Shown here: positions 6,496 to 60,835 of the stretch, in pieces
How positions within the stretch are numbered: the first letter of the stretch is position 1
Layout: every line of letters starts with the position of its first letter
NCBI RefSeq assembly: GCF_003790525.1
Contig: NZ_CP033633.1
Reading direction: 5' to 3' (one strand)
Length of the DNA stretch: 64,000 nt
Source: Escherichia coli
GTDB taxonomy: Bacteria; Pseudomonadota; Gammaproteobacteria; Enterobacterales; Enterobacteriaceae
The notes under the pieces: model-generated
What the model saw: the letters and a program-made list of their open reading frames with translations, nothing else
What the model was told of the DNA's origin: nothing
Databases searched by the model: none
Made by a program: the position numbers and the translations under genes

Positions 6496-7386
6496 TCAGG
6501 CTGCCAGATCATCGTTTCCGATGGAAGCATAATAAGCTTTTTCTGCTTCTGCCGGTGGGATATGGCCCAGCCTTTCCAGCAATCGTCGATTGTTATACCA
6601 GTCCACCCACGTGAGTGTGGCCAGCTCCACTTCTGTCCGGTTTTTCCAGCTCTTACGGTGTATTACCTCCGCTTTGTAAAGGCCATTGATGCTCTCCGCC
6701 ATCGCGTTGTCATACGAGTCACCAGTACTTCCTGTTGATGCCAGTAATCCGGCTTCCTTAAGCCGCTGTGTGTAGGCCAGCGATACATACTGAGAACCTT
6801 TATCACTGTGATGGACTGTGCCGGACGGTCGACGGGCCCATAACGCCTGCTCCAGAGCATCCAGCACGAATGTCGTTTCCATAGACGATGAGACCCGCCA
6901 CCCCACGATGTATCCGGCAAACACATCAATGATGAACGCCACATAGACGACCCCCTGCCATGTGCTGACGTAAGTAAAATCAGCCACCCACAACTGGTCA
7001 GGACGTTCTGCCACAAACTGACGGTTTACGCGGTCGCCTGCGGCAACGGCTTTCCGGCTGACGGTAGTGCGGACCTTTTTACCCCGGAGAACACCGGCAA
7101 GTCCCATAACCGCCATGAGGCGCGCCACTGTACATCTGGCTACCCTGATTCCTTCCCGTAACAACTGACGCCAGACTTTACGCACACCATATACCTGATG
7201 ATTCCCATCGTATACGCGCAGTATCTCTTTCTTCAGCCAGTCATCGCGCTGCGCACGGGCACTGCGTTTATAAGGATGATGTCGCTGTTGCTGACAGTGG
7301 TAATACGTTGACGGGGCAATATGTAGTTCACTGCATACCGGTCCGACCCCGTACAGCTTACGCAGCTTATCCAGCAGTGGCATCAC
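6496..7386 (-). CDS. IS629 transposase OrfB
   Basis: 296-aa ORF; DDE integrase core (HSDKGSQY...[15 protein letters not shown]); overlaps orfA as in IS3 family. Confidence 0.85.
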
Positions 7387-7709
7387 TTTTTCCAGAGGCG
7401 GTCGAACTCCGCCTTCGCAAAATAAGCGGAAGCCTGGCGAAGGATATCGTTACTGCGGCGCAGTTCACGATTTTCACGTTCCAGCTCTTTCAGACGCTGA
7501 CGTTCAGCGGTGGTGAGCCCGCCATCACCGCCTCCGGTATCCCGCTCATGCTGGCGTACCCAGACACGCAGAGTCTCCGGTGTACAGCCAATCTTTGGGG
7601 CAATGGAACAAATTGCCGCCCACTGTGAGTCATATTCGCCCTGACTTTCCAGAACCATACGAATCGCCCTCTGACGGACTTCGGGGGAAAAACGAGTATT
7701 TTTAGTCAT
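7383..7709 (-). CDS. IS629 transposase OrfA
   Basis: 108-aa [33 protein letters not shown]... with leucine-zipper tail. Confidence 0.85.
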
Positions 7710-24078: not shown

Positions 24079-25560
24079 TCATACGGGAGATGGCGGTTCC
24101 CAGCGTTTATCCTGCTCCGGCGGAGGCAGTGATGCGTCATCGTTGCTGTTCGCCGCGATATAATCGCGGTAGTAGCGTTCACTTCCTTCCCGGTGATGAT
24201 CCACATCCGGTCGTGTAATCCTGTAGTCTTCGTGACCGGTACGGCCTGTCACATTATGCCAGGCAACCATTTCAGCAAAGACCTGGTTAAATTGTTTGTC
24301 GTTTCCTTCTGGTTCAAAGCCCATTCTGGGATCACGCTCAAACAATACAGGTGCAATCAAATCCAGTTTATCTGCCAGCGCATTGCGGTCATGGTGATTA
24401 CGGAAAACAACCCTGTCACCATAATCCGTACAGACAAACTCTCCCGTCCGACGGTCACGGAAACGAACACTCCCGTTCTTCTGCAAACGGGCCTCGAGAT
24501 CACCGGTATTACCGTATACCGGCGTTCCGCCCGGTTCACAAAGCACGACACAGCGGTCTGTTGTTGTTGTGCGTGACTTGTCTTTACGGCGATCGCGATA
24601 ATCCCAGCCTCTCAACTGCGATACAGCAGCCCTGTCTCCCTGAGCAGCCTGAATTTCGACCCACTGACGGTAAGAGGGTGGATACCACTTCCCGTCAGCA
24701 ATAAGTTTCTGTCGCTCATCCCTGATGTCTTCTTTCAGCCTGATCAACGCCTGCATTCGCTGAACTTCTGCAATGTGATAATGCAGCTTACGTAATGCCG
24801 GATCATCGTACTGCGCACGAATGTGTGACTTCCGCAGACGGCATGCCTGATGAATTTCCCGACAACGTTCCCCATTACGCAGATCTGGTTTACGCCATTG
24901 TTCACGCCATGCCAGATAGCGGGCACGCAGGTCAGCACGGGCCTCAGCTCTGGCTTCACGTCGCTGCCGGCGCAGCATTGGGTCACGTTTACTGCTGACC
25001 CCGTACCTGTCACTGACAGCCAGCTCCGGGTTATAGCGACTTTCAGGTTGCACCCTGTCAAACAAATCTGCTGGGGCACTCACAAAAGGTCCGGCCTGTG
25101 GCTCTGCACGCCCCAGAGTCAGATCAGGATGAATGCTGCTGGCCTTCACCGGCGTTTGCTCATGATTAAAGGCATCAACGACAACAAGCCCGTGATGTTG
25201 TTTCTGTAGCATCAGTCCCTGTTGTGCAAACAGCTCATGACAACGCTGCCAGGTAAACTCACCCTGTGTGATCATTTCTTCAATCTGAGGGCTACAATGG
25301 CTGATGCTGTATCCCCACAGACTTTCTTTATCAGAAAACAGTTCGCGTTTGATATCCCCCTGCGGCCCCGTGCCTGTACGCATACGGTGCCATTCTTTAT
25401 CGGTCGCAGGACAGCTCTCCATACGACGACCACGGAAGCGTTCTGTTGGCGTAACCTGGCGGAAAATATCTGTTGGTACAGGCTGCCAGCCACCATCGAG
25501 TTGATTCACATTGTCGAGCGTCAGCAGTGACCATACGGTGTCAGCACGAACGGGAGTCTG
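24079..25560 (-). pseudogene. relaxase fragment: paralogue of the C-terminal ~490 aa of the NikB-like relaxase at 53701-56403; nuclease domain missing
   Basis: Long collinear similarity (QTPVRADxxWxLLTLxN...WHRMRTGxGPQGxIKRExFSDKESLWGY...) to the 900-aa relaxase but lacking the HxH relaxase motifs. Confidence 0.65.
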
Positions 25561-25599
25561 GTTATGATATTTTTCGGATCCCGGTGAAAAAAGAGAGAA

Positions 25600-26955: not shown

Positions 26956-27282
26956 ATGACTAAAAATACTCGTTTTTCCCCCGAAGTCCGTCAGAGGGCG
27001 ATTCGTATGGTTCTGGAAAGTCAGGGCGAATATGACTCACAGTGGGCGGCAATTTGTTCCATTGCCCCAAAGATTGGCTGTACACCGGAGACTCTGCGTG
27101 TCTGGGTACGCCAGCATGAGCGGGATACCGGAGGCGGTGATGGCGGGCTCACCACCGCTGAACGTCAGCGTCTGAAAGAGCTGGAACGTGAAAATCGTGA
27201 ACTGCGCCGCAGTAACGATATCCTTCGCCAGGCTTCCGCTTATTTTGCGAAGGCGGAGTTCGACCGCCTCTGGAAAAAGTGA
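26956..27282 (+). CDS. IS629 transposase OrfA
   Basis: Identical protein to 7383-7709. Confidence 0.85.
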
Positions 27283-28169
27283 TGCCACTGCTGGATAAGC
27301 TGCGTAAGCTGTACGGGGTCGGACCGGTATGCAGTGAACTACATATTGCCCCGTCAACGTATTACCACTGTCAGCAACAGCGACATCATCCTTATAAACG
27401 CAGTGCCCGTGCGCAGCGCGATGACTGGCTGAAGAAAGAGATACTGCGCGTATACGATGGGAATCATCAGGTATATGGTGTGCGTAAAGTCTGGCGTCAG
27501 TTGTTACGGGAAGGAATCAGGGTAGCCAGATGTACAGTGGCGCGCCTCATGGCGGTTATGGGACTTGCCGGTGTTCTCCGGGGTAAAAAGGTCCGCACTA
27601 CCGTCAGCCGGAAAGCCGTTGCCGCAGGCGACCGCGTAAACCGTCAGTTTGTGGCAGAACGTCCTGACCAGTTGTGGGTGGCTGATTTTACTTACGTCAG
27701 CACATGGCAGGGGGTCGTCTATGTGGCGTTCATCATTGATGTGTTTGCCGGATACATCGTGGGGTGGCGGGTCTCATCGTCTATGGAAACGACATTCGTG
27801 CTGGATGCTCTGGAGCAGGCGTTATGGGCCCGTCGACCGTCCGGCACAGTCCATCACAGTGATAAAGGTTCTCAGTATGTATCGCTGGCCTACACACAGC
27901 GGCTTAAGGAAGCCGGATTACTGGCATCAACAGGAAGTACTGGTGACTCGTATGACAACGCGATGGCGGAGAGCATCAATGGCCTTTACAAAGCGGAGGT
28001 AATACACCGTAAGAGCTGGAAAAACCGGACAGAAGTGGAGCTGGCCACACTCACGTGGGTGGACTGGTATAACAATCGACGATTGCTGGAAAGGCTGGGC
28101 CATATCCCACCGGCAGAAGCAGAAAAAGCTTATTATGCTTCCATCGGAAACGATGATCTGGCAGCCTGA
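27279..28169 (+). CDS. IS629 transposase OrfB
   Basis: Identical protein to 6496-7386. Confidence 0.85.
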
Positions 28170-40054: not shown

Positions 40055-40102
40055 AGTATGACGGAGACGGGCGGGAAACCGCCCGTTTCTTTTCCGACAA
40101 AG

Positions 40103-40447
40103 GATGTCGCCGGCGGCTCCGCTTTACCCGGCCATGCGGGGCATGGCCTTGTGGGTTTTCAACTCTGTAGCCTCAGCGTCGTGTGCGGGCTGTGCCGTGC
40201 CTCCATCGTAGCCGGGCTTCTGCGGGCGGGTTGCAAGGTAAGGTGAACCGCTGCGGTCACCCGGTCCCTCCTTCCCGTCTGCCGTGATTTTCCGGTCGTT
40301 CACCCGCTCAGATTTCGCGGTCTCACCCTCCAACTCCCGTCAGCCGTGTGCGTCAGGCTGCGGCTTCCCTTGCGCCCTTGCAACCCTGCAGGCCCGGCAA
40401 AGATGGAGGCACGGCACCGCCCGGTGTCGCGGAATATGTGAACAACG
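40103..40447 (+). repeat. structured non-coding repeat, family A copy 1 (ssi/Frpo-like candidate)
   Basis: ~345 bp GC-rich, near-identical to 47056-47402; directly upstream of the klcA-like gene. Confidence 0.6.
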
Positions 40448-40459
40448 GAGGAAAACATC

Positions 40460-40885
40460 ATGCAATATGCGAAACCTGTCACTCTGAATGTTGAAGAGTG
40501 CGACCGTCTCTCCTTTCTGCCTTACCTGTTTGGCAACGATTTTCTGTATGCCGAGGCGTATGTGTACGCGCTGGCGCAAAAAATGATGCCGGAATATCAG
40601 GGAGGCTTCTGGCACTTCATCCGCCTGCCGGACGGTGGCGGTTACATGATGCCGGATGGCGACCGTTTCCACATGGTGAACGGTGCAAACTGGTTTGACC
40701 GTACCGTGAGTGCTGATGCCTGCGGCATCATTCTGACTTCCCTTGTGATTAACCGCCAGTTGTGGCTGTACCACGACAGCGGGGATGCGGGACTGACACA
40801 CCTTTACCGGATGCGCGATGCGCAGTTGTGGAGCCACATCGAATTTCACCCCGAATGCAATGCGATTTACGCGGCACTGGACTGA
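40460..40885 (+). CDS. antirestriction protein, KlcA/ArdB-like (tentative)
   Basis: 141 aa; ...[22 protein letters not shown]...[15 protein letters not shown]...; assignment from remembered family pattern. Confidence 0.5.
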
Positions 40886-40931
40886 TTAACGGACGGGGCG
40901 GCGATGCCGCCCCTGTAAAGGAGACGAGAAC

Positions 40932-41351
40932 ATGTACTGTACTGTTAAAGAAATTATCCGCGAAGTGCTGGATACAGACGTGCCGGACAGTGAATGCGTT
41001 TTTGCTGTGGTGCTGACCCGTGGGGATGTACGTCACATAGCCCAGGACTGGAGTCTGACAGACGATGAGCTGGAAACCGTCATGCAGCGGCTGGACGATG
41101 CCTTTGAGCATGGTGCTGATGTCAGCATTGTTCACGACGTTGTTCGTGAACTGATGGAGGAAAAGCGCGTAAACCGTCTTGTAACAGTCCCTGCGGTGCT
41201 GCTGGAAAAAGTGATGGTGATGGCTGGTAGTGAAATTTATCGCCTCCATGCTGTAGGGAGCGAGAACGGGGGCGACGGTGACGCATTTGTCAGGGAAGAA
41301 CGTGAGATTATGCGGTTGATGCGTCAGGCGCTGGACGGGGAGAACGGGTAA
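40932..41351 (+). CDS. hypothetical acidic leading-region protein
   Basis: 139-aa ORF co-oriented with neighbours. Confidence 0.5.
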   Translation: MYCTVKEIIREVLDTDVPDSECVFAVVLTRGDVRHIAQDWSLTDDELETVMQRLDDAFEHGADVSIVHDVVRELMEEKRVNRLVTVPAVLLEKVMVMAGSEIYRLHAVGSENGGDGDAFVREEREIMRLMRQALDGENG

Positions 41352-41542
41352 TGAATATCAGCACAGAAACCCGCGAAATTCTGCGCAATTACAAAGCCGT
41401 GATTAATGCACGACGTCGTGAGATGGGGCAGAAACCGCTCACCACCGCGCAGATTGTTGATGAAATCTGCGATTTTGTGGCAAATCAGCAGGCTGTTTTC
41501 CTCGGCGGTCACTACATCCTTCAGGGCAGCAGAAACAGGTGA
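41351..41542 (+). CDS. hypothetical small protein
   Basis: 63-aa ORF, start overlaps previous stop. Confidence 0.35.
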   Translation: MNISTETREILRNYKAVINARRREMGQKPLTTAQIVDEICDFVANQQAVFLGGHYILQGSRNR

Positions 41543-41744
41543 TACAGGGCAGGCGGTGGAGGCCGCCTGTCAGCCCGCGCGAAAACCCCTGGCAGGCTGA
41601 CGCCTGCCGGAAACGCGGGGTGCAGCGCCTGCGGCGCTGCCGGCCCGGCTTTCCGGTCAGAAGGTAGTGTATGGCTGTATGCCAGGAACAGGTGTGATAT
41701 TCCGTGACGCTGTCACCGTTTCTGGCTGTTTTTTGTTGCGCCCA

Positions 41745-42300
41745 CTTCGGCTCCCGGCTGCCTGGCGGCATCCGGTCGTCAGGCCCGACTCCGACAGGCA
41801 GCTGCTGGCGCACCCGCCAGTCTCCGCCGAACCCGCTGGCGCGGTTTCGGGCTGTCGCTACGGTCCGATGCGTGAAAACCCGGGCTTGCAGCGACCGTTC
41901 CGGTCGCGCCGCCTCTGTCGCGCCGTGACCTGCGCTCCCTGCACACCTGACGGTGTGTGAGGAAACTGCGCCTGATGGCGCAGCAGTCTTCCCTCCTGCC
42001 GCCACCTCTGCGGCCTGTTTCCCGCTGTGGACTTTCCGGGGGGCAGACGTAACCCCCTCCCGTTCCATCTGTCCAGGGTGAGATGCACCGGCCACAAAAT
42101 TTTTAGCCATGAACCCGGCTAAAAATTTTGCGTCCGCCCCCGGACAGCTGTCCCGTGAGGCGGTAAACGGGCCCCCATCGGAAAGGTCCACTGCGGGGAG
42201 AAACCCCTGTGAAGTGGACGGCAGGAGGAGCTTTCGCTCCTCTGAAGGGGCACATGAACGTCCCGTCGCCGGTATCCGGTTTATCTCACATCTTTCAGTC
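41745..42300 (+). repeat. structured non-coding repeat, family B copy 1 (ssi/Frpo-like candidate) upstream of ssb
   Basis: ~555 bp GC-rich, many internal palindromes; paralogous to 48098-48640 and 51470-51850. Confidence 0.6.
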
Positions 42301-42311
42301 AGGAGGTTCTT

Positions 42312-42839
42312 ATGAGTGCACGTGGTATCAACAAGGTCATCCTCGTCGGGCGTCTGGGCAATGATCCGGAAGTCCGTTACATCCCCAACGGGGGCGCAGT
42401 GGCAAACCTGCAGGTGGCCACGTCAGAAAGCTGGCGCGACAAACAGACGGGGGAGATGCGGGAGCAGACGGAATGGCACCGCGTGGTGCTGTTCGGCAAG
42501 CTCGCGGAAGTGGCAGGTGAATATCTGCGCAAGGGCGCGCAGGTCTACATCGAGGGGCAACTCCGTACCCGTAGCTGGGAAGATAACGGTATCACCCGTT
42601 ACGTCACTGAAATTCTTGTTAAGACCACGGGCACCATGCAGATGCTGGGGAGTGCACCACAGCAGAACGCTCAGGCGCAACCGAAGCCTCAGCAGAATGG
42701 GCAGCCACAGAGTGCTGACGCGACGAAAAAAGGTGGCGCGAAAACGAAAGGCCGTGGACGTAAGGCCGCGCAGCCCGAGTCTCAGCCGCAACCGCCGGAG
42801 GGGGAGGATTACGGGTTTTCAGACGATATCCCGTTCTGA
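42312..42839 (+). CDS. ssb: plasmid single-stranded DNA-binding protein
   Basis: 175 aa; OB-fold N-terminus, Gln/Pro-rich linker, acidic tail ...DDIPF. Confidence 0.9.
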
Positions 42840-42857
42840 CTGGCCTGACTGTGATAA

Positions 42858-43130
<273 letters not shown>

Positions 43131-43193
43131 GAGAGGTGCCGGACGGGAACGCGTCCGGCAGACATACAACCATCCCGGTCAAAGGAGAAATAT

Positions 43194-45151
43194 ATGTCAG
43201 TTACAGAGTCTAAGACAAAAACGGAGCGTAAATCCAGCCGTAAACCTGCAAAAACGCAGGAAACTGCACTGTCTGCCCTGCTGGCGCAGACGGAGGAAGT
43301 GAGCGTGCCGCTGGATTCACTGATTAAATCACCGCTGAATGTGCGCACGGTGCCGTATTCTGCGGAGTCCGTCAGTGAACTGGCTGATTCCATTAAGGGA
43401 GTCGGCCTGCTGCAGAATCTGGTTGTTCATGCCCTGCCAGGTGACCGTTACGGTGTCGCCGCAGGTGGTCGCCGACTGGCAGCACTCAACATGCTGGCAG
43501 AGCGTGACATCATTCAGGCTGACTGGCCTGTCCGCGTGAAAATTATTCCGCAGGAGCTGGCGACGGCTGCATCGATGACCGAGAACGGTCATCGTCGGGA
43601 TATGCACCCTGCCGAACAGATTGCCGGATTCCGCGCAATGGCGCAGGAAGGCAAAACACCTGCGCAAATCGGTGATTTGCTGGGCTATTCACCCCGCCAT
43701 GTCCAGCGAATGCTGAAACTGGCTGACCTTGCGCCTGTCATCCTCGATGCGCTGGCAGAAGACCGCATCACCACCGAACACTGTCAGGCGCTGGCGCTGG
43801 AGAACGACACCGCGCGTCAGGTGCAGGTGTTTGAAGCCGCCTGCCAGTCAGGATGGGGTGGAAAACCGGATGTGCGGGTTATCCGCAACCTGATTACGGA
43901 AAGTGAAGTGGCGGTGAAGGACAACACTAAATTTCGCTTTGTGGGGGCTGATGCTTTCTCGCCTGACGAACTGCGCACCGATTTGTTCAGCGATGACGGG
44001 GACGGTTATGTCGACCGCGTGGCGCTCGATGCCGCCCTGCTGGAAAAACTCCAGGTTGTTGCAGAGTCCCTTCGGGAAGCAGAAGGCTGGGAATGGTGCG
44101 CCGGGCGCATGGAGCCAGTCGGTGAGTGCCGTGAGGATGCCGGAACATACCGCTGTCTGCCGGAGCCGGAAGCGGTGCTGACGGAGGCGGAAGAAGAACG
44201 CCTGAACGAACTGATGACGCGTTACGACGCGCTGGAAAACCAGTGTGAGGAATCCGACCTGCTGGAAGCAGAAATGAAGCTGATGCGCTGCATGGCGAAG
44301 GTCAGAGCGTGGACGCCGGAGATACGTGCCGGAAGCGGTGTGGTGGTGTCCTGGCGTTATGGCAACGTATGTGTCCAGCGTGGTGTGCAGTTGCGCAGTG
44401 AAGATGACGCGACTGACGACGCTGACCGCACGGAACAGGTGCAGGAGAAAGCGTCAGTGGAGGAAATCAGTCTGCCACTGCTGACGAAAATGTCTTCCGA
44501 ACGCACGCTGGCAGTCCAGGCGGCACTGATGCAGCAACCGGACAAATCCCTGACACTGCTGGCATGGACGCTCTGCCTGAATGTGTTTGGCAGCGGAGCG
44601 TACAGTAAACCAGCACAAATCAGCCTGGAATGTAAACATTATTCGCTGACCAGCGATGCGCCGTCAGGGAAGGAAGGTGCCGCATTCATGGCGCTGATGG
44701 CAGAAAAAGCCCGTCTTGCGGCCCTGTACCGGAGGGATGGTCACGGGACATGACGACATTCCTTTCACTCAGTCAGGAGGTGCTGTTATCCCTGCTCAGT
44801 TTCTGCACCGCGTGCAGCATCCACGGCGTTCAGACCCGCGAGTGTGGTCACACGTCACGCAGCCCGCTGGACACGCTGGAGAGCGCCATCGGTTTTCACA
44901 TGCGCGACTGGTGGCAGCCGACAAAAGCAAACTTCTTCGGACACCTGAAAAAGCCGCAGATTATCGCAGCCCTGAATGAGGCAGGACTGTCCGGTGCCGC
45001 ACGGGACGCGGAGAAGATGAAGAAAGGCGATGCGGCTGAACATGCAGAGTTCCATATGAAAGACAACCGCTGGGTGCCTGGCTGGATGTGTGCACCACGT
45101 CCACAGACGGATACCACTGAACGCACTGATAACCTGGCTGATGCCGCCTGA
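43194..45151 (+). pseudogene. ParB-like nuclease-domain protein (leading-region ParB/YubM-like) split by a frameshift near 44750
   Basis: ORFs 43194-44753 (519 aa, ParB/Srx-like motif ...VAAGGRRLAAL...) and 44750-45151 (133 aa) together span the ~650 aa expected. Confidence 0.65.
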
Positions 45152-45202
45152 TGAACAACCACACCGCCCCGCCGGAGACGGGGCGGCAGCAAGGGAGATA
45201 CC

Positions 45203-45640
45203 GTGATGAAAACTGAACTGACCCTGAATGTCCTGCAGACCATGAACGCACAGGAATATGAAGATATCCGTGCTGCGGGAAGCGATATGCGCCGTAATCT
45301 CACTCACGAGGTGATGCGTAAAGTGGACGCACCGGCTAACTGGATGATGAATGGCGAGTATGGCAGTGAGTTCGGGGGCTTTTTCCCCGTCCAGGTTCGT
45401 TTCACGCCAGCCCACGAACGTTTCCACCTGGCATTATGTTCGCCGGGAGACGTCTCTCAACTCTGGATGCTGGTTCTGGTGAATGGTGGTGGACAGCCTT
45501 TCGCCGTCGTTCAGGTGCAACATATCTTCACGCCTGTCGCGATCAGTCACACGCTGGCGCTCGCCGCGACACTTGATGCGCAGGGATACAGTGTTAACGA
45601 CATCATTCATATTTTGATGGCAGAAGGAGGTCAGGCATGA
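45203..45640 (+). CDS. psiB: PsiB, plasmid SOS inhibition protein B
   Basis: [27 protein letters not shown]...[10 protein letters not shown], near-identical to F PsiB. Confidence 0.9.
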
Positions 45641-46356
45641 GCGCACGTTCACGGGCACTGATCCCCCTCAGCGCAGAACAACAGGCCGCCATGCAGGCTG
45701 TGGCTGTCACCGAACAACGTCGTCGTCAGGGACGCACACTTTCAGCATGGCCTTATGCCAGCGCTTTCTTTCGCTGCCTGAATGGCAGTCGCCGGATTTC
45801 GCTGACCGATCTCCGCTTTTTTGCCCCTGCGCTGACGAAGGAGGAATTTCATGGCAACCGTCTCCTGTGGCTGGCTGCCGTGGATAAACTGATTGAAAGT
45901 TTTGGTGAAGTCTGTGTTCTTCCCCTGCCATCCGATGCGGGGCATCGTCTGTTCCCGTCTGTTCCTTTTCGTGAAGGTGAGCGTCGTCGTCAGAAAACCA
46001 CGCTGACAGAGCAGAAATACAGCCGCCAGCGGGAACGTGAGGCAGAACGACGGGAACTGGAATACCAGACATGTTTTGCTCAGGCGCAGATTGACCTTGC
46101 GTTTCATACTCCCGCCACGGTCGGAAGCTGGTTGTCCCGCTGGTCTGGTGCTGTTGAGGAGCATGATCTGGAAACGATTTTCTGGGGGTGGTGCGGGCGT
46201 TTTCCGTCACTGTCATCATTTGACCGGTTTTTCTGGCAGGAGGGACCACTCTGGCGGCTGATTTTTGAAGCCGGTGAGGCCGGTCGTGGTGCACCGGTAC
46301 AGGTACGTGCACTTGAGCAGTGGATGATCCCGAACAAGCTGGAGAACGTAATATGA
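45637..46356 (+). CDS. psiA: PsiA, plasmid SOS inhibition protein A
   Basis: 239-aa ORF overlapping psiB stop; [22 protein letters not shown]... Confidence 0.85.
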
Positions 46357-46949
46357 TGAAATCAGACGAAAAATATCAGGTTCCCGTGTGGATGCGACCT
46401 CTGTTGCCGTTGCTCTGCAACACCGGGGGGAACGATCCGGAAGAACTGCTGAATGATACAGCAACCACTGTCAGTGCGAATGTTGTCCGTTATGTACTGA
46501 TAGTTGCTGTGCGGTCGCAGGTTGATCTGCTGCAGATTCTGTACAGGAAAGGGCTGTTGCGCACAGAGATACCAGGTGGCTTTTCACCGGAAGAAGCGCA
46601 GGCACTCCTGGATAATCTGGTGCGCAGCCATATCAGCAGGGCGCTGTCGGGTGAGCGAATGGCAGCCCGTGACAGAAATGCCGATCTGGCCTGGATTCGA
46701 CAGCAACTGGTCGATGCCGCCTGGTTTGTCCGTGCCACACTGGAGGCGCATGGGATGGGCGTCGGAAATGAGAGTCCCCCTGCTCAGCCGGAGACAATGC
46801 CGGACATACAGACACGGGAACTGGTGATGTTGATCAAGCGACTGGCATCATCGCTGAAAGCGGTGAAACCGGACAGTTGTGTGGTGCGTGAAGCGCAGGA
46901 CTGGCTGCGCGACAGAAAACTTGTGAGCATCACGGATGTTCTTCGGTGA
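46353..46949 (+). CDS. hypothetical leading-region protein
   Basis: 198-aa ORF; ATG overlaps psiA stop (ATGA). Confidence 0.5.
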   Translation: MMKSDEKYQVPVWMRPLLPLLCNTGGNDPEELLNDTATTVSANVVRYVLIVAVRSQVDLLQILYRKGLLRTEIPGGFSPEEAQALLDNLVRSHISRALSGERMAARDRNADLAWIRQQLVDAAWFVRATLEAHGMGVGNESPPAQPETMPDIQTRELVMLIKRLASSLKAVKPDSCVVREAQDWLRDRKLVSITDVLR

Positions 46950-47055
46950 ACCAGTGGAGGTATGCTTGAGGGGCAGGGACATGCCGGTCATGATCGTTTC
47001 GTTCCAGGGGTGGTCTGGAGATCATGCGGTGTGCTCCCTGCTCTCGCCGGAATAA

Positions 47056-47402
47056 GGACGTCGCCGGCGGCTCCGCTTTTACCCGGCCATGCGGGGCATG
47101 GCCTTGTGGGTTTTCAGGTATGAAGCCATCGTGTCGTGTGCGGGCTGTGCCGTGCCTCCATCGTAGCCGGGCTTCTGCGGGCGGGATGCAAAGGTACGCT
47201 TCGCCGCTGCGGTCACCCGGTCCCTCCTTCCCGTCTGCCGTGATTTTCCGGTCGTTCACCCGCTCAGATTTCGCGGTCTCACCCTCCAACTCCCGTCAGC
47301 CGTGCGCGTCGGGCTGCGGCTTTCCTTGCGCCCTTGCATCCCTGCAGGCCCGGCAAGGATGGAGGCACGGCACCGCCCGGTGCCGCAGAACATGTGACTA
47401 TG
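47056..47402 (+). repeat. structured non-coding repeat, family A copy 2 (ssi/Frpo-like candidate) upstream of ardA
   Basis: Near-identical to 40103-40447. Confidence 0.6.
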
Positions 47403-47414
47403 GAGGATTCGGGA

Positions 47415-48097: not shown

Positions 48098-48640
48098 CTT
48101 CGGCTCCCGGCTGCCTGGCGGCATCCGGTCGTCAGGCCCGACTCCGACAGGCAGCTGCTGGCGCACCCGCCAGTCTCCGCCGAACCCGCTGGCGCGGTTT
48201 CGGGCTGCCGCTACGGTCCGATGTCTGAAAAACCAGGCCTGCAGCGACCGTTCCGGTCGCGCCGCCCCTGTCGCGCCGGAAACGGCGCTCCCTGCACACC
48301 TGACGGTGTGTAAGGCCACTGCGCCTGATGGCGCAGTTGTCTGCCCTTCCGCCGCCACCCCTGCGGCCTGTTTCCCGCTGTGGACTTTCCGGGGGCTGAA
48401 GCGGCCACAACACGTTTCAGCCGTCCAGGGGAGAGATGTACCAGCCACAAAACTTTTTGCCGCAGGCGTCAAAAACTTTTGCGTCTGCCCCCGGACAACT
48501 GCCCCGTGCCGTGGCAGTCGCTGCCCCATCGGAAAGGTCCACTGCGGGGAGAAACCCCGAAGAAGTGGACGGCAGAAGGGGCTTTCGCCCCTCCGGGGAA
48601 TAACCGGTCGGCCCGGCGACCTGATTCAGCAGAAGGAGAC
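48098..48640 (+). repeat. structured non-coding repeat, family B copy 2
   Basis: Paralogue of 41745-42300. Confidence 0.6.
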
Positions 48641-49440: not shown

Positions 49441-49504
49441 TTAACCCTTGCCGTCTGCCTGTGCAGGCGGCAGGATACGTTCAGACATCTCACCAGGAGG
49501 AACC

Positions 49505-50467
49505 GTGAGTAAGAAGAAAACCACCACGACGCCCACGCCGCATGATGCCGCGTTCCGGTCGTTCCTGGCGAACCCCGACGTCGCCAGAGATTTTCTGGAA
49601 CTGCATCTTCCGGCGGAGTACCGGCAGTTGTGCGACCTGTCCACGCTGAAGCTGGAACCCGCCACCTTTGTTGAGCCGGACCTGCATCAGTACGCCAGCG
49701 ATATCCTCTGGAGTGTGAAAACCACCGGGGGTGAAGACGGCTATATTTATACGCTCATCGAGCACCAGAGCACCGAAAATCTGTACATGCCTTTCCGCAT
49801 GTTACGTTACAGTGTGGCGGCGATGCAGAGACATCTGGAGCAGCACAAAACATTGCCACTGGTGATTCCGGTGCTGTTCTATCATGGTGAGCGCAGCCCG
49901 TACCCGTACAGCATGAACTGGCTGGACTGTTTTGAGGATCCGGCGCTTGCGGCTAAAATATACACAAAGCCGTTTCCGCTGGTTGATATCACTGTCGTTG
50001 ATGACAATGAAATCATGAACCATCGCCGGATGGCCGCACTGACGCTGCTGATGAAGCATATCCGCCATCGTGACATGATGGAGCTGCTGGACAAACTCCC
50101 GCAGGTCATGGTGGAAATTTCAGACGAGCAGGTGCGTGTTCTGATTCATTACATCGTTAACGCAGGGGACTCTGTATCACCGGAATTTATGCGGGCGCTG
50201 GCTGAGCGTCTGCCGCAGCATGAGGATAAACTGATGACTATTGCCGAACGTCTTGAGCAGCAAGGAATACAGAAAGGAATACAGCAGGGAATACAGCAGG
50301 GAATACAGCAGGGAATACAGCAGGGAATACAGCAGGGAATACAGAAAGGCCGCATGGAGGAGAAGCAGGATATTGCGCGTCAGCTTCAGAAAACGGGAAT
50401 GCCATCTGCACAAATCTGTCAGATCACCGGACTTTCCGAAGCTGAACTGAAGAACATCACTCACTGA
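49505..50467 (+). CDS. Rpn-family (YhgA-like, PD-(D/E)XK) recombination-promoting nuclease with repeat-containing C-terminal tail
   Basis: GTG start with SD caggagga; N-terminal HDAAFRSFL...DFLELHLP...IEHQS...FRMLRYS motifs; C-terminal GIQ[QK] x7 repeat then conserved tail. Confidence 0.75.
   Translation: MSKKKTTTTPTPHDAAFRSFLANPDVARDFLELHLPAEYRQLCDLSTLKLEPATFVEPDLHQYASDILWSVKTTGGEDGYIYTLIEHQSTENLYMPFRMLRYSVAAMQRHLEQHKTLPLVIPVLFYHGERSPYPYSMNWLDCFEDPALAAKIYTKPFPLVDITVVDDNEIMNHRRMAALTLLMKHIRHRDMMELLDKLPQVMVEISDEQVRVLIHYIVNAGDSVSPEFMRALAERLPQHEDKLMTIAERLEQQGIQKGIQQGIQQGIQQGIQQGIQQGIQKGRMEEKQDIARQLQKTGMPSAQICQITGLSEAELKNITH
50234..50467 (+). CDS. putative intragenic small ORF (RpnS-like) from an internal in-frame SD+ATG within the Rpn gene
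   Basis: gagga-N7-ATG at 50234; product MTIAERLEQQ(GIQx)n...TGLSEAELKNITH parallels the two stand-alone downstream cassettes. Confidence 0.4.
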   Translation: MTIAERLEQQGIQKGIQQGIQQGIQQGIQQGIQQGIQKGRMEEKQDIARQLQKTGMPSAQICQITGLSEAELKNITH

Positions 50468-50506: not shown

Positions 50507-50529
50507 TCAGCAGGAGCAGAGCAAACAGT

Positions 50530-51469: not shown

Positions 51470-51850
51470 TTTTCTCCGGTCGCGCCGGATGCGGCGCTCC
51501 CTGCACACCTGACGGTGTGTAAGGCCACTGCGCCTGATGGCGCAGCTGTCTCTGCCTGTCTGCCGCCGCACTGCGGCCCGTTCTCCGCAGACGAACTTTC
51601 CGGGGGTACATACACGACCACATCCCGTTTCAGTCGTCCAGGGGAGAGATGTACCAGCCACAAAACTTTTTGCCGCAGGCGTCAAAAACTTTTGCGTCTG
51701 CCCCCGGACAACTGCCCCGTGACGTGGTGAGCGTCCCCCGTCGGAAAGGTCCACTGCGGGGAAATCCCCGAAGACCCGGACGGCAGAAGGAGCTTCGCTC
51801 CTCCGGGAAATGACCTGGCTGACCCGGCAGTCGTGACGATGAGGAGACAA
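51470..51850 (+). repeat. structured non-coding repeat, family B copy 3 (5'-truncated)
   Basis: Collinear with the 3' ~380 bp of 48098-48640. Confidence 0.55.
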
Positions 51851-53139: not shown

Positions 53140-53350
53140 GTTTCATGTTGAAGTCTGATTTTATCATCAAAAACTGACTCCTGGCAGGGCTGCGCCCTGC
53201 CTCTGCCGTCTGCATAAGACTATGATGCACAAAAATAACAGGCTATAATGGCCTGAAAAACGGGACAGGATGTGTAATCGTATAACCGCGCACGCACGGC
53301 TATACGATTACCACCTGGTCAGGGCTTTGCCCCGACACCCTGGTAAGGAG
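53140..53350. promoter_or_regulatory. candidate origin of transfer (oriT) with inverted repeats, upstream of nikA-like gene
   Basis: IR GGCAGGGC-TGC-GCCCTGCC (53183-53201) and perfect 11-bp IR GTAATCGTATA-N14-TATACGATTAC (53273-53308). Confidence 0.4.
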
Positions 53351-53356
53351 CAGACC

Positions 53357-53689
53357 ATGAGTGAGAAGAAAAACCGAAGTGGTAGTGAGAAACGGCAAAA
53401 GAATGTCCTCATTGCTGTTCGTTTTTCACCAGAAGAGGCTGATATTGTTAAAGAAAAGGCAGAAAAAAACGGACTGACAGTTTCAACTCTGATAAGAAAA
53501 ACTGTGCTGGGAAAACAGATAAATGCCCGCATTGACGAAGATTTTTTGAAAGAGCTGATGCGTCTTGGTCGCCTGCAGAAGCATCTGTTTGTGGAAGGAA
53601 AACGCACGGGAGATAAAGAGTATGCAGAGGTTCTCGTTGCTATTACAGAACTTGCTAATACTCTGCGAAGAGATTTAATGGGACGCTGA
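53357..53689 (+). CDS. nikA: relaxosome accessory protein (NikA/MbeC-like ribbon-helix-helix)
   Basis: 110 aa; MSEKKNRSGSEKRQKNVLIAVRFSPEEADIVKEKAEKNGLTVSTLIRK...; immediately precedes the relaxase. Confidence 0.65.
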   Translation: MSEKKNRSGSEKRQKNVLIAVRFSPEEADIVKEKAEKNGLTVSTLIRKTVLGKQINARIDEDFLKELMRLGRLQKHLFVEGKRTGDKEYAEVLVAITELANTLRRDLMGR

Positions 53690-53700
53690 GATAATCGCTG

Positions 53701-56403
53701 ATGAATGCCATCATTCCGAAAAAAAGACGCGACGGAAAGTCTTCTTTTGAAGACCTGATTGCGTACACCTCAGTGCGGGATGATGTGCCGGAAGATGAAC
53801 TCAGGCCAGACACGGAAATGAAAGCTGAGATTCCGCACCGGAACCGCTTCAGACGTCTTGTTGATTATGCAACACGTCTGCGTAATGAAAAATTTGTTTC
53901 CCTGATTGATGTGATGAAAGACGGCAGTCAGTGGGTGAATTTCTATGGTGTGACCTGCTTTCATAACTGTTTGTCTCTTGAATCTGCGGCTGAAGAAATG
54001 CAGAAAGCAGCAGACCTTGCTCATTTTTCCAAAGATGATACAGATCCTGTTTTTCACTATATTCTCTCCTGGCCTGCGCACGAAAGTCCGCGTTCTGAGC
54101 AGCTTTTTGACTGTGTGCGTCACACCCTGAAATCCCTTGAGCTGTCAAAACATCAGTATGTGGCAGCCGTTCATACAGACACGGATAACCTGCATGTACA
54201 TGTTGCAGTGAATCGTGTCCACCCTGAAACCGGCTATATCAATTGCCTTCCGTGGAGCCAGGAAAAACTCAGCCGTGCATGTCGTGAACTTGAACTTAAG
54301 CACGGATTCGCGCCTGATAATGGCTGCTTTGTGCATGCACCCGGCAACCGTATTGTGCGCAAAACAGCGCTGGTACGTGAGCGCCGTAATGCCTGGCGAC
54401 GCGGGAAAAAGCAGACGTTCAGGGAATATATTGCGCAGATGTCGATTGCCGGGCTGCGTGAAGAGCCCGCACAGGACTGGTTATCTTTGCATAAACGGCT
54501 GGCCAGTGATGGTCTGTATATCACGATGCAGGAAGGGGAACTGGTGGTGAAGGATGGCTGGGACAGAGCGCGGGAAGGTGTTGCACTCAGTTCGTTCGGA
54601 CCGTCATGGACAGCTGAAAAACTGGGGCGGAAACTGGGGGAATATCAGCCTGTACCGACAGATATTTTCAGTCAGGTGGGGGCACCCGGTCGTTATGATC
54701 CGGAAGCCATTAACGTGGATATCCGGCCGGAAAAAGTGGCAGAAACGGAGAGTCTGAAACAGTACGCCTGTCGTCACTTTGCTGAACGCTTACCGAAAAT
54801 GGCGCGAAATGGTGAACTGAAAAGTTGCCTGGCTGTACACCGTACTCTGGCAGAGGCGGGATTATGGATGGGGATTCAGCACGGGCATCTGGTACTGCAT
54901 GATGGATTTGAACCACAGCAGACGCCGGTTCGTGCAGACAGTATATGGCCGTTGTTAACGCTGGAAAATATCAGAAAACTGAATGGCGGCTGGCAGTCTG
55001 TACCGAAGGATATTTTTACTCAGGTTGTACCACAAAGTCGCTTTAGTGGGCATCGAATGGATATGCATCCGGTCAGTGATCATGAATGGCACAGAATGAG
55101 AACAGGGGCTGGCCCACAGGGGGCAATTAAGCGGGAGATTTTCTCTGACAAAGAGAGTCTGTGGGGATATGCAGTCAGCCATTGTGCCCGTGATATTCAG
55201 TACATGATCTCTGAAGGGCGCTTTAGCTGGCAGAACTGCCATGAACTGTTTGCCCGCAGTGGACTGATGTTACAGAAACTGCATCATGGTCTTGTGATTG
55301 TGGATGCGTTTAATCATGACCAGACACCGGTTAAAGCCAGCAGCATTCATCCGGATTTGACTTTGTCCAGAGCAGAGCCGCAGGCCGGGCCATTTGAAAT
55401 TGCAGCGGCGGATATTTTCGATCGGGTGAAGCCTGAAAGCCGTTATAACCCTGATATGGCTGTCAGTGACAGTAAGGAACCCGGGTTTAAACGGGATCCT
55501 GAATTGCGCCGCCGTCGTCGTGAAACCCGTGCAGCTGCGCGGGAAGATTTACGTGCGCGTTACCTTGCATGGAAGGAGCACTGGCGTAAACCCGATTTAC
55601 GTTACGGCGAACGGTTACGGGAAGTTCATGCTGCCTGCCGCCGGCGCAAGGCGCATATCCGCGTACAGTTCAGGGATCCGCAAGTGCGTAAGCTGCATTA
55701 CCATATTGCGGAAGTGCAGCGAATGCAGGCGCTGATCAGGCTGAAGGAAAGCGTCAGGGAAGAGCGACTGTCGCTGATGGCGGAAGGTAAGTGGTACCCG
55801 CTGTCTTACAGGCAGTGGGTGGAGCAGATGGCGGTTCAGGGGGATTCTGCTGCTGTATCTCAGTTACGTGGATGGAATTATCGCGACAGAAGGAATGATG
55901 AGGTGCTTTTAACCACGCCTCAACGCTGTGTGGTTCTTTGTGAACCAGGCTCCACCCCGATTCACAGGGATATCGGTGGCATGGTGGCGACTTTGCAGCG
56001 TAATGGCAGTGTGCGTTTCCGTGATGCGACAACAGGAGAGTACGTCTGTACAGATTATGGTGATCGCGTTGTTTTCAGCAACAGTGCCGATAACAAAACA
56101 CTGAAGAAAAGGATGGTCAGGGTGTCCAGTGTGCTTTTTGCAAGGGATCCCCGAATGGGGTTTGAGCCGGAAGGTCAGGATGCACAATTTAACCGTATGT
56201 TTGCTGATATGGTTGCGTGGAAAAACGTGCAGCGGGATGAGCGTAAGGGGCACTACAGGATAAGTCGTTCTGATGTTGATCAACTGAGGGTCAGTAGTGA
56301 AAAACGTTTTCGTGATTATCTTAAAGGGCGTGATACTGAATCACACACTTACCATCATGCAACGGATGAAAATAAGTGGGAGCCGCCATCACCGGGGATG
56401 TAA
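53701..56403 (+). CDS. nikB: MOBP-type conjugative relaxase (NikB-like)
   Basis: 900 aa; relaxase His-triad motif AAVHTDTDNLHVHVAVNRV in N-terminal domain; size and context match IncI1 NikB. Confidence 0.75.
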   Translation: MNAIIPKKRRDGKSSFEDLIAYTSVRDDVPEDELRPDTEMKAEIPHRNRFRRLVDYATRLRNEKFVSLIDVMKDGSQWVNFYGVTCFHNCLSLESAAEEMQKAADLAHFSKDDTDPVFHYILSWPAHESPRSEQLFDCVRHTLKSLELSKHQYVAAVHTDTDNLHVHVAVNRVHPETGYINCLPWSQEKLSRACRELELKHGFAPDNGCFVHAPGNRIVRKTALVRERRNAWRRGKKQTFREYIAQMSIAGLREEPAQDWLSLHKRLASDGLYITMQEGELVVKDGWDRAREGVALSSFGPSWTAEKLGRKLGEYQPVPTDIFSQVGAPGRYDPEAINVDIRPEKVAETESLKQYACRHFAERLPKMARNGELKSCLAVHRTLAEAGLWMGIQHGHLVLHDGFEPQQTPVRADSIWPLLTLENIRKLNGGWQSVPKDIFTQVVPQSRFSGHRMDMHPVSDHEWHRMRTGAGPQGAIKREIFSDKESLWGYAVSHCARDIQYMISEGRFSWQNCHELFARSGLMLQKLHHGLVIVDAFNHDQTPVKASSIHPDLTLSRAEPQAGPFEIAAADIFDRVKPESRYNPDMAVSDSKEPGFKRDPELRRRRRETRAAAREDLRARYLAWKEHWRKPDLRYGERLREVHAACRRRKAHIRVQFRDPQVRKLHYHIAEVQRMQALIRLKESVREERLSLMAEGKWYPLSYRQWVEQMAVQGDSAAVSQLRGWNYRDRRNDEVLLTTPQRCVVLCEPGSTPIHRDIGGMVATLQRNGSVRFRDATTGEYVCTDYGDRVVFSNSADNKTLKKRMVRVSSVLFARDPRMGFEPEGQDAQFNRMFADMVAWKNVQRDERKGHYRISRSDVDQLRVSSEKRFRDYLKGRDTESHTYHHATDENKWEPPSPGM

Positions 56404-56471
56404 AAATCATGTAGACAGGGTGATTAAATCACCGTAATGTGTCCTCGTTGTGTATACATTATGGGGGAGAT

Positions 56472-56720
56472 ATGCGAACACAGGTGACACTGCAAAAATG
56501 GGGCAACAGTATTGCTCTCCGGTTAACCGGAAATCTGAAAACCGTGCCGGGTTTTTCGGCAGGAGATGTGGTTGATGTGGAAATCAGTGAGAAAGGATTG
56601 ATCGTGGAAAAACCGGTGAGACCTCGTCTTACAGAGGCTGTATTGCTTGCGGGGCTGACGCCATTTTCCGCGCATGCAGATGAAGCTGCCACTCTTCTTG
56701 ATAAGGAGAGTGAGTTCTGA
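56472..56720 (+). CDS. MazE/PemI-like antitoxin (AbrB/SpoVT fold)
   Basis: 82 aa MRTQVTLQKWGNSIALRLTGNL...; stop overlaps toxin start. Confidence 0.65.
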   Translation: MRTQVTLQKWGNSIALRLTGNLKTVPGFSAGDVVDVEISEKGLIVEKPVRPRLTEAVLLAGLTPFSAHADEAATLLDKESEF

Positions 56721-57064
56721 TGTTTGTTCCAAAGCGTGGTGATATTTGCTGGCTTGATTTTGAACCCCAAAAAGGAAAAGAAATTGGCAAATATCGTCCG
56801 GCATTAATCCTGTCCCATGAGCAATATAATCGTTTAACAGGGCTTGTCATATGCTGCCCTGTCAGTACGAGTATCCGGGGCGCTCCAACAGAGGTTCCTG
56901 TTACTAATCTCGATGCACCAAGTGTGGTGGCCACAACGCTCATACAGACACTTGACTGGCGGCAAAGGCAAGTGCGTTTAATTACGGAAGCAGAAGAGGG
57001 CGTATTTGATGAGGTGCTTGAGAGAGTGATCACTCTGATTGGTGGTGAACATTTACTGAAGTGA
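56720..57064 (+). CDS. MazF/PemK-like endoribonuclease toxin
   Basis: 114 aa MFVPKRGDICWLDFEPQKGKEIGKYRPALILSHEQYN... Confidence 0.8.
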   Translation: MFVPKRGDICWLDFEPQKGKEIGKYRPALILSHEQYNRLTGLVICCPVSTSIRGAPTEVPVTNLDAPSVVATTLIQTLDWRQRQVRLITEAEEGVFDEVLERVITLIGGEHLLK

Positions 57065-57068
57065 AGGA

Positions 57069-57321
57069 GCCTGTTTAAGATTCTGTGTAAATGCCTTTCT
57101 CAGAAGTGACCGTCCAGGCGGTCACCGAACTCGATAATAAAGCGGCTCATTGCCATTCGCCAGTCCTTCAACGGCATCGTCCATTTCCGGGACGCAGACT
57201 GGATTGCCAGCCACACCACTTTTTTCACCGAGTCCGTCTGTCGGGAACACTTTACGCTTTTTGATCGCATGGCGGATCACGCTGTTTAGCGACTCGATGG
57301 CATTCGTCGTATAGATCACTT
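57069..57321 (-). mobile_element. IS256-family element fragment, copy 3 (terminal ~250 bp, cut by IS629)
   Basis: Same end sequence as 5245 and 10491; ORF 57122-57319 encodes the transposase C-terminus. Confidence 0.6.
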
Positions 57322-57375
57322 TGAACCGCCCCGGAAATCCTGGAGACTAAACTTCCTGAGAAAGATGTAAACAGG

Positions 57376-57702
57376 ATGACTAAAAATACTCGTTTTTCCC
57401 CCGAAGTCCGTCAACGGGCAGTTCGTATGGTTCTGGAAAGCCAGGGCGAATATGACTCACAATGGGCGGCAATTTGTTCCATTGCTCCAAAGATTGGCTG
57501 TACGCCAGAGACCCTGCGTGTCTGGGTTCGCCAGCATGAGCGGGATACCGGGGGCGGTGATGGTGGGCTCACCACCGCTGAACGTCAGCGTCTGAAAGAG
57601 CTGGAACGCGAAAATCGTGAACTGCGCCGCAGTAACGATATCCTTCGCCAGGCTTCCGCTTATTTTGCGAAGGCGGAGTTCGACCGCCTCTGGAAAAAAT
57701 AA
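57376..57702 (+). CDS. IS629 transposase OrfA (variant)
   Basis: 108 aa, one substitution relative to copies 1 and 2. Confidence 0.8.
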
Positions 57703-58095
57703 TGCCACTGCTGGATAAGCTGCGTGAGCTGCAGTGAGCTGCATATTGCCCCGTCAACGTATTACCACTGTCAGCAACAGCAGCATCATCCTGATAAACG
57801 CAGCGCCCGTGCGCAGCGTGATGACTGGCTGAAGAAAGAGATACAGCGCGTATACGATGAAAATCACCAGGTGTACGGTGTGCGTAAAGTCTGGCGTCAG
57901 TTGTTACGGGAAGGTATCAGAGTGGCCAGATGCACTGTGACACGTCTTATGGCGGTTATGGGTTTTGCCGATGTTCTCCGGGGTAAAAGGTCCGCATTAC
58001 CGTCAGCCGGAAAGCCGTTGCCGCAGGCGACCGCGTAAACCGTCATTTCGTGGCAGAACGTCCTGACCAGCTGTGGGTGGCTGATTTTACTTACG

Positions 58096-60835
<2,740 letters not shown>

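Follow-up and report, generated by a model that had tools for sequence, protein, structure and literature searches.

Two copies of a probable class 2 single-stranded DNA promoter upstream of the klcA-like and ardA genes in an Escherichia coli plasmid leading region

We analysed a 64,000-nt stretch of Escherichia coli DNA (contig NZ_CP033633.1, RefSeq assembly GCF_003790525.1; hereafter the window) that contains two copies of a module of about 360 bp, called family A, each lying directly upstream of an antirestriction gene (Table 1). The downstream genes are those named in a preliminary description of this sequence, since Pfam assigned the first product to the KlcA/ArdB type and the second to ArdA; NCBIfam gave no match for either product, and the genes syntenic to the klcA-like gene in plasmids F and pESBL carry the annotation 'antirestriction protein'. 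The window is syntenic with the leading region of pESBL from umuCD to just short of nikA. An intact relaxase gene is present at 53701-56403, oriT lies directly left of the relaxase genes at about 52.8-53.3 kb, and both klcA and ardA are oriented toward the relaxase/oriT side. In IncI-type plasmids the leading region enters the recipient first and the relaxase genes enter last. The transfer direction given in Fig. 2 of PMC12672017 agrees with this knowledge. With the leading region extending leftward from oriT and transfer in the IncI-type direction, the minus strand is therefore the transferred strand, and it is also the template for klcA and ardA.

Table 1. Coordinates in the window of the two family A modules, their parts and the neighbouring genes; promoter parts are predicted.
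Feature	Position	Strand	Basis or remarks
Family A copy 1, complete class 2 single-stranded DNA promoter module (ssp2 type, by homology), 5' of klcA-like gene	40100..40459	-	alignment, repeat search, BLAST
Copy 1, distal flank	40100..40185		
Copy 1, imperfect hairpin, 238 nt	40186..40423	- (transferred strand)	DNA fold, z -4.8 vs shuffles
Copy 1, -10 element TACGAT	40205..40210	-	non-template (3') arm, within mismatch bubble
Copy 1, -35-like element TTGCAA	40231..40236	-	non-template arm; paired with template-arm 40378-40383
Copy 1, template-arm partners	40378..40404	-	-35 partner 40378-40383, 15-nt spacer, -10 partner 40399-40404
Copy 1, predicted transcription start	40410..40412	+	about 7 nt past -10; leader about 49 nt with Shine-Dalgarno sequence
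Copy 1, Shine-Dalgarno sequence within the 5' untranslated region	40447..40452		
klcA/ardB-type antirestriction gene, 141 aa	40460..40885	+	Pfam PF03230 Antirestrict, E 1e-25
Family A copy 2, class 2 single-stranded DNA promoter module (by homology), 5' of ardA	47054..47414	-	alignment, BLAST
Copy 2, hairpin, 239 nt	47141..47379	- (transferred strand)	DNA fold, z -3.3 vs shuffles
Copy 2, -10 element TACGAT	47160..47165	-	non-template arm
Copy 2, -35-like element TTGCAT	47186..47191	-	non-template arm
Copy 2, template-arm partners	47334..47339 and 47355..47360		
Copy 2, predicted transcription start	about 47367		
Copy 2, Shine-Dalgarno sequence	47402..47407		
ardA antirestriction gene, 166 aa	47415..47915	+	Pfam PF07275 ArdA, E 2.7e-29
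nikA/mobA-like and nikB-like relaxase genes (relaxase 900 aa)	53270..56403	+	mobA and relaxase in closest record; pESBL synteny

In a pairwise alignment the similarity between the two copies is unbroken from about 40100/47054 to about 40452/47407 and both flanks diverge, so that the repeat extends through the GGAGGA Shine-Dalgarno (SD) sequence and ends a few bases short of each start codon. The repeat search returned ungapped blocks of 207 nt at 94% (40235-40441 / 47191-47397) and of 114 nt at 92% (40123-40236 / 47078-47191), and BLAST gives 92.1% identity over 355 nt with gaps counted. The duplication that had been described is confirmed by this continuous alignment and is not a matter of low complexity, although the identity of about 95% first given for it is slightly high. 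Family A had also been called unrelated to a second repeat family of the window, family B. This is correct for the sequence, where BLAST finds no significant similarity (best E at least 1.5), yet family B is functionally analogous, belonging to class 1 (Frpo/ssi). No Rfam family matches within either module at the gathering score.

Both copies have close counterparts at characterised loci. By BLAST, copy 1 has 88.5% identity to 57009-57376 of the IncI plasmid pESBL, 5' of klcA; the counterpart of copy 2, with 89.4% identity, is pESBL 63951-64322, 5' of ardA. Copy 1 also shows 89% identity to plasmid F 56398-56754, directly 5' of the F antirestriction gene, and the published primers with which ssp2 was mapped (Fraikin preprint) are placed 200-300 nt upstream of this F interval and are directed into it. 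The pESBL hairpins 5' of klcA and ardA are class 2 single-stranded DNA (ssDNA) promoters (Wen et al. NAR 2025, PMC12672017); in transconjugants their downstream operons are strongly induced within 15 min as measured by RNA-seq, and their transcription start sites were mapped by 5' rapid amplification of cDNA ends (PMC12672017). The ssp2 element was independently found as Frpo3 (bioRxiv 10.1101/2025.04.03.647016). Judged by sequence, family A is this known class 2 ssDNA promoter (ssp2/Frpo3), which appeared under three names in December 2025 and January 2026, and the suggestion that klcA and ardA share a single-strand promoter module is upheld by the 88-89% identity to the two pESBL hairpins and to F ssp2. 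The likeness runs over the whole module and includes the same two downstream genes, the same position and orientation in the leading region, and a long hairpin whose non-template arm carries TTGCA and TAnGAT.

Family A is common on enterobacterial plasmids. The module was matched in at least 5000 plasmid records of Escherichia, Klebsiella, Salmonella and Shigella, where it is almost never annotated, and it occurs in 3682 of 5426 complete E. coli genomes (68%), in which 6704 of the 6784 places are on plasmids; the phage search gave no match. Divergent homologues are found 5' of a klcA-ardA tandem in Klebsiella IncFII plasmids, 5' of ardA in plasmids of Serratia, Lelliottia, Citrobacter, Enterobacter and Salmonella Weltevreden, and 5' of klcA in plasmids of Raoultella and Enterobacter. 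All 15 family A copies, from 11 loci, adjoin a klcA-type gene or ardA. The element does not always travel with ardA, because a profile scan of the region upstream of the ardA of an IncN plasmid found no family A element. Two of the Klebsiella IncFII plasmids (L012 and L013) carry the klcA-type gene and ardA 45 nt apart behind a single class 2 hairpin, and one promoter is therefore common to both genes.

To describe the fold we used a set of 17 homologues from Escherichia, Klebsiella, Salmonella, Serratia, Lelliottia, Raoultella, Citrobacter and Enterobacter, of which the divergent members were gathered by tblastn with ArdA followed by an nhmmer profile scan of the upstream regions. The sequences were aligned with MAFFT, and covariation was scored on a majority minimum-free-energy structure (built from those pairs that half or more of the individual folds share), used in place of a covariance model of the whole element, whose roughly 360 columns exceed the practical calibration limit. 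Fold prediction gives a long imperfect hairpin on the minus strand of both window copies, and all 17 homologues fold into a common architecture. Across the set 93.3% of cells are paired and 21 of 52 stem pairs show compensatory changes, values reached by none of 500 shuffles, and when the partners are displaced by 1-3 columns the paired cells fall to 33-39%. The 14 close copies by themselves hardly vary and yield 1 compensatory pair.

The candidate promoter elements are confined to one arm of this hairpin. On the non-template arm, and there only, TTG is invariant (17/17) and TAnnnT is kept in 16 of 17 homologues; among the close copies, one compensatory A-T/T-A pair falls inside the -35-like element. 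In duplex form the corresponding plus-strand hexamer reads TTTTAT, TGTCGT or AAAGAT across homologues, the last being the -10 partner of copy 1 (40399-40404), and a promoter scan found no sigma-70 consensus promoter on either duplex strand of either copy. A -10 that, as predicted here, exists only in the folded form is a requirement of an ssDNA-specific promoter.

The two window copies differ from those of F and pESBL in the distance between these elements. In F, pESBL and most homologues the spacer from -35 to -10 measures 15 nt on the non-template and 19 nt on the template arm (15/19). The window, in common with other IncK2/Z plasmids and some IncF plasmids, has a second structural allele with a 20/15 spacer, seen in both window copies, one IncK2/Z plasmid and one Klebsiella IncF plasmid. 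Compared with F and pESBL, 5 nt are inserted in the non-template arm of the window allele and 4 nt are missing from its template arm, and the mean distance from -35 to -10 is near 17 in both structural alleles. The -10 also differs, being TACGAT in the window and TAAGAT in pESBL and F. The experimentally tested promoters are all of the 15/19 allele.

A further variant is seen in Escherichia albertii plasmid p1RM9973 (L005, 9001-9357), where the non-template -10 is TTTTAT, a perfect complement of the template arm, so that the -10 bubble is closed and A-11 is lost. This copy may be a natural variant impaired as an ssDNA promoter.

We consider it very probable that each family A copy is a class 2 ssDNA promoter (ssp2/Frpo3) that switches on klcA or ardA upon conjugative entry. 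Homology, fold and covariation, the asymmetry between the strands, the confinement of the -10 to one arm, and the context and orientation of the genes were obtained in this analysis; the transcription of ssDNA, the start site, the early and transient expression, the switch-off and the roadblock are carried over from the literature on the homologues. During conjugation the minus strand of the region would reach the recipient first, in single-stranded form, and the 238-nt inverted repeat would fold back into a long imperfect hairpin. This hairpin would re-form a duplex -35 (TTGCA), with the -10 (TACGAT) of the non-template arm lying in a partly mismatched and thus pre-opened bubble. The host sigma-70 RNA polymerase would bind the hairpin and initiate about 13 bp from its base, at predicted starts near 40411 and 47367. 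The incoming strand could in this way be transcribed into klcA-operon and ardA mRNA ahead of the complementary strand, and the antirestriction proteins would be made before restriction enzymes encounter double-stranded plasmid DNA. Synthesis of the complementary strand would then remove the hairpin and turn the promoter off. The homology with F ssp2 makes it probable that the hairpin also holds up complementary-strand synthesis until UvrD unwinds it, a stall that would lengthen the single-stranded window for the downstream genes. If the property described for F holds here, the plasmid would carry a barrier of this kind at two places, ahead of the klcA-ssb-psiB-psiA block and ahead of ardA.

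Several points weigh against this interpretation. The start sites and the ssDNA specificity are taken over from homologues of 88-89% identity, and the roadblock function comes from a single preprint on F. The spacing is unusual, and it is precisely in the spacer that the window allele differs from the tested promoters. The duplex hexamer AAAGAT of the window allele retains A-11 and T-7, and some activity on double-stranded DNA (dsDNA) is therefore possible in this allele. Finally, relatedness among the homologues can inflate the shuffle control for covariation; stronger evidence than that control comes from the slid control and from how many pairs are compensatory.

The alternative explanations fit the data less well, because the -10 is specific to one arm, the strands differ in stability, the position before the SD sequence is fixed and start sites have been mapped in homologues. 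The one that fares best among them, which we nevertheless regard as very unlikely, is that the element serves chiefly complementary-strand synthesis, as a structural barrier or a signal for priming (a roadblock or single-strand initiation site), and that its promoter activity is incidental. In F, ssp2 stalls complementary-strand synthesis at the base of the stem independently of transcription, with UvrD resolving the stall, and affects transfer into recipients with restriction-modification (RM) systems; with the block, the early genes downstream are expressed more strongly and the plasmid fares better against type I restriction (preprint 10.64898/2026.01.09.698686). The stem is very long and G+C-rich, far beyond what a promoter needs, and Frpo-type hairpins are able to make RNA primers (Masai and Arai 1997, as cited by later papers). 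A barrier or priming site does not, however, account for the retention of TTG and TAnnnT on one arm together with a mismatch bubble, for the position directly before an SD sequence and an antirestriction gene in 15 of 15 copies, or for the start sites mapped in pESBL (PMC12672017). When ssp3 takes the place of ssp2 in F, transfer into a type II RM host is restored, and promoter function therefore matters (preprint 10.64898/2026.01.09.698686). The two roles are compatible, and the best explanation is a promoter that includes the roadblock as a second role.

We find it highly improbable that the element acts instead as an RNA leader, that is, as a 5' untranslated region (UTR) or part of a read-through transcript that governs translation or stability of the klcA and ardA mRNAs. 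It does lie directly 5' of the coding sequences, and covariation alone cannot separate DNA folding from RNA folding. The strand on which folding is favoured is the wrong one for a leader, however: in DNA folding the minus strand is more stable than the sense (plus) strand in 17 of 17 homologues, and the wobble pairs also favour the minus strand (G.T 16 vs A.C 6). This predicted asymmetry is more readily explained by a fold in the transferred DNA than by one in a sense RNA. The predicted and the published starts both fall within the gene-proximal arm, so the mRNA would lack the other arm, and, as noted above, Rfam has no family matching the region. Least credible of all is an ordinary double-stranded promoter or operator that was copied along with its genes, or a miniature mobile element with inverted repeats that inserted twice, which the long inverted repeats and the two copies on one replicon might suggest, but which is contradicted by the lack of a duplex sigma-70 consensus alongside a -10 confined to the folded non-template arm, by flanking genes that are unrelated and therefore show no gene duplication, by a position relative to the SD sequence that is constant across genera with no visible target-site duplication, and by the almost exclusively plasmid-borne distribution, with no phage or scattered chromosomal copies.

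The comparison of paralogues with orthologues conflicts between the parts of the module. In the hairpin, the klcA and ardA paralogues differ at 2 positions in the pESBL pair and at 12 in the window pair, whereas the orthologues of window and pESBL differ at 32-36, and orthologues across the two allele groups at 28-36. In the 35-nt leader (5' UTR) we observe the reverse, with 0-1 differences among orthologues against 17-18 between paralogues. The hairpin therefore clusters by plasmid and the 5' UTR by gene. Furthermore, the 3' segment of the apical part exists as sub-alleles, GGTTCACCTTACC at klcA and GGCGAAGCGTACC at ardA in the window, and in the related IncK2/Z plasmid pRHBSTW-00176_3 the GGTTCACCTTACC and GGCGAAGCGTACC sub-alleles stand at the opposite genes. 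Clustering of the hairpin by plasmid and of the UTR by gene, together with the reversed sub-alleles, implies that the hairpin has been exchanged between the two loci, in agreement with the preliminary description, where the module was suggested to be swapped. We tentatively propose, as a possibility we would not put at even chances, that the hairpin is an exchangeable cassette, homogenised or swapped between the klcA and ardA loci, of which two alleles with reciprocal bulges keep the mean spacing at about 17. If this is true, the spacer that RNA polymerase reads across an imperfect hairpin would be an averaged one, and IncI/K-type plasmids would carry two serial replication roadblocks, one per antirestriction operon. 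The two structural alleles with reciprocal bulges and the evidence of cassette exchange are small additions to a known element, and they supply natural variants for testing how the sigma-70 polymerase reads hairpin promoters.

The distal flank of both copies (40130-40148 / 47085-47103) contains a conserved hairpin of small size, which on the plus strand reads GGCCATGC GGG GCATGGCC with TTGTGGGTTTTC after it, and one Klebsiella and one Serratia homologue have a hairpin of differing sequence at this position. A role for it as an insulating intrinsic terminator is unsupported, as its energy does not surpass that of shuffles (z about 0) and the terminator scan did not flag it.

Class 1 ssDNA promoters (F Frpo1/Frpo2, ColIb-P9 ssi1-3) work on the same principle: a leading-region hairpin formed by the transferred strand rebuilds the -35 and -10, and expression from it is early and transient (Masai and Arai 1997; Bates et al. 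1999; Couturier et al. 2023, PMC9849209). They have their own downstream operons (the ssb-psiB-psiA operon and others), and family A shows chance matches only to the class 1 loci of F and pESBL, whereas family B matches them. The three family B copies of the window (41745-42242, 48098-48593 and 51476-51727) are 98%, 94% and 97% identical to pESBL class 1 ssDNA promoters (ssi-type), and family B also matches, more weakly, the Frpo2 and Frpo1 loci of F, 5' of ssb and of the gene in the ygeA position. From sequence similarity, the leading region of the window is thus assigned five ssDNA promoters, two of class 2 and three of class 1, and for the window itself the value of the analysis lies in the correct annotation of these five promoters that organise the leading region. 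More generally, the class 2 hairpins decide whether an incoming resistance plasmid expresses antirestriction proteins before the host cuts it, which makes them a point at which the spread of antibiotic resistance is controlled.

Class 3 of pESBL and F, 5' of the M.EcoGIX methylase operon, is likewise a long hairpin promoter of the leading region. In pESBL its distal edge has a 27-nt stretch (AAAGGATGTCGCCG...) in common with class 2, but its sequence is otherwise unrelated and class 3 is absent from the window. What the window lacks is pESBL 54455-57009, an M.EcoGIX-type methylase operon with a class 3 ssDNA promoter. The junction falls within the motif AAAGGATGTCGCCG at window 40097-40112, which is found in pESBL at 4440-4455 and 7009-7024 (numbering of L003), where it starts both the class 3 and the class 2 modules. 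The methylase operon may have been lost by recombination between the short AAAGGATGTCGCCG repeats, or the motif may be a shared functional edge.

A more distant parallel is offered by the early-gene hairpin promoters of coliphage N4, where transcription depends on a DNA hairpin extruded from a single-stranded or supercoiled template with the aid of single-stranded DNA-binding protein. These hairpins are short and are read by the phage virion RNA polymerase, with no rebuilt sigma-70 promoter, and we know of no sequence relation between them and family A.

Other features of the window were noted in passing. The closest record, NZ_CP029742.1, has an IS150 between psiA and ardA that the window does not have, and is typed with three MOBP relaxases. 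On the minus strand, 63591-63748 matches the STAXI RNA motif of Rfam (RF01728) over its full length, scoring 70.4 bits where the gathering score is 40.5; this motif occurs in association with ssb, topoisomerase, antirestriction and integrase genes. A group II intron 3' domain (RF00029) at 60279-60365 (+) and three ALIL pseudoknots (RF01497, frameshift signals of the IS3 family) at 7312-7428 (-), 27237-27353 (+) and 57657-57743 (+) are located among long direct and inverted repeats of the insertion sequence (IS) type. Far from the relaxase gene, 24086-25568 is an inverted fragment 98% identical to part of pESBL nikB, which points to an IS-mediated rearrangement or a cointegrate. Finally, an open reading frame resembling Rpn-family nucleases (49448-50467, +) has a run of QGIQ peptide repeats (QGIQKGIQQGIQQGIQQGIQQGIQQGIQKG) near its C-terminus, and its pESBL homologue aligns up to window position 50259 and resumes at 50523.

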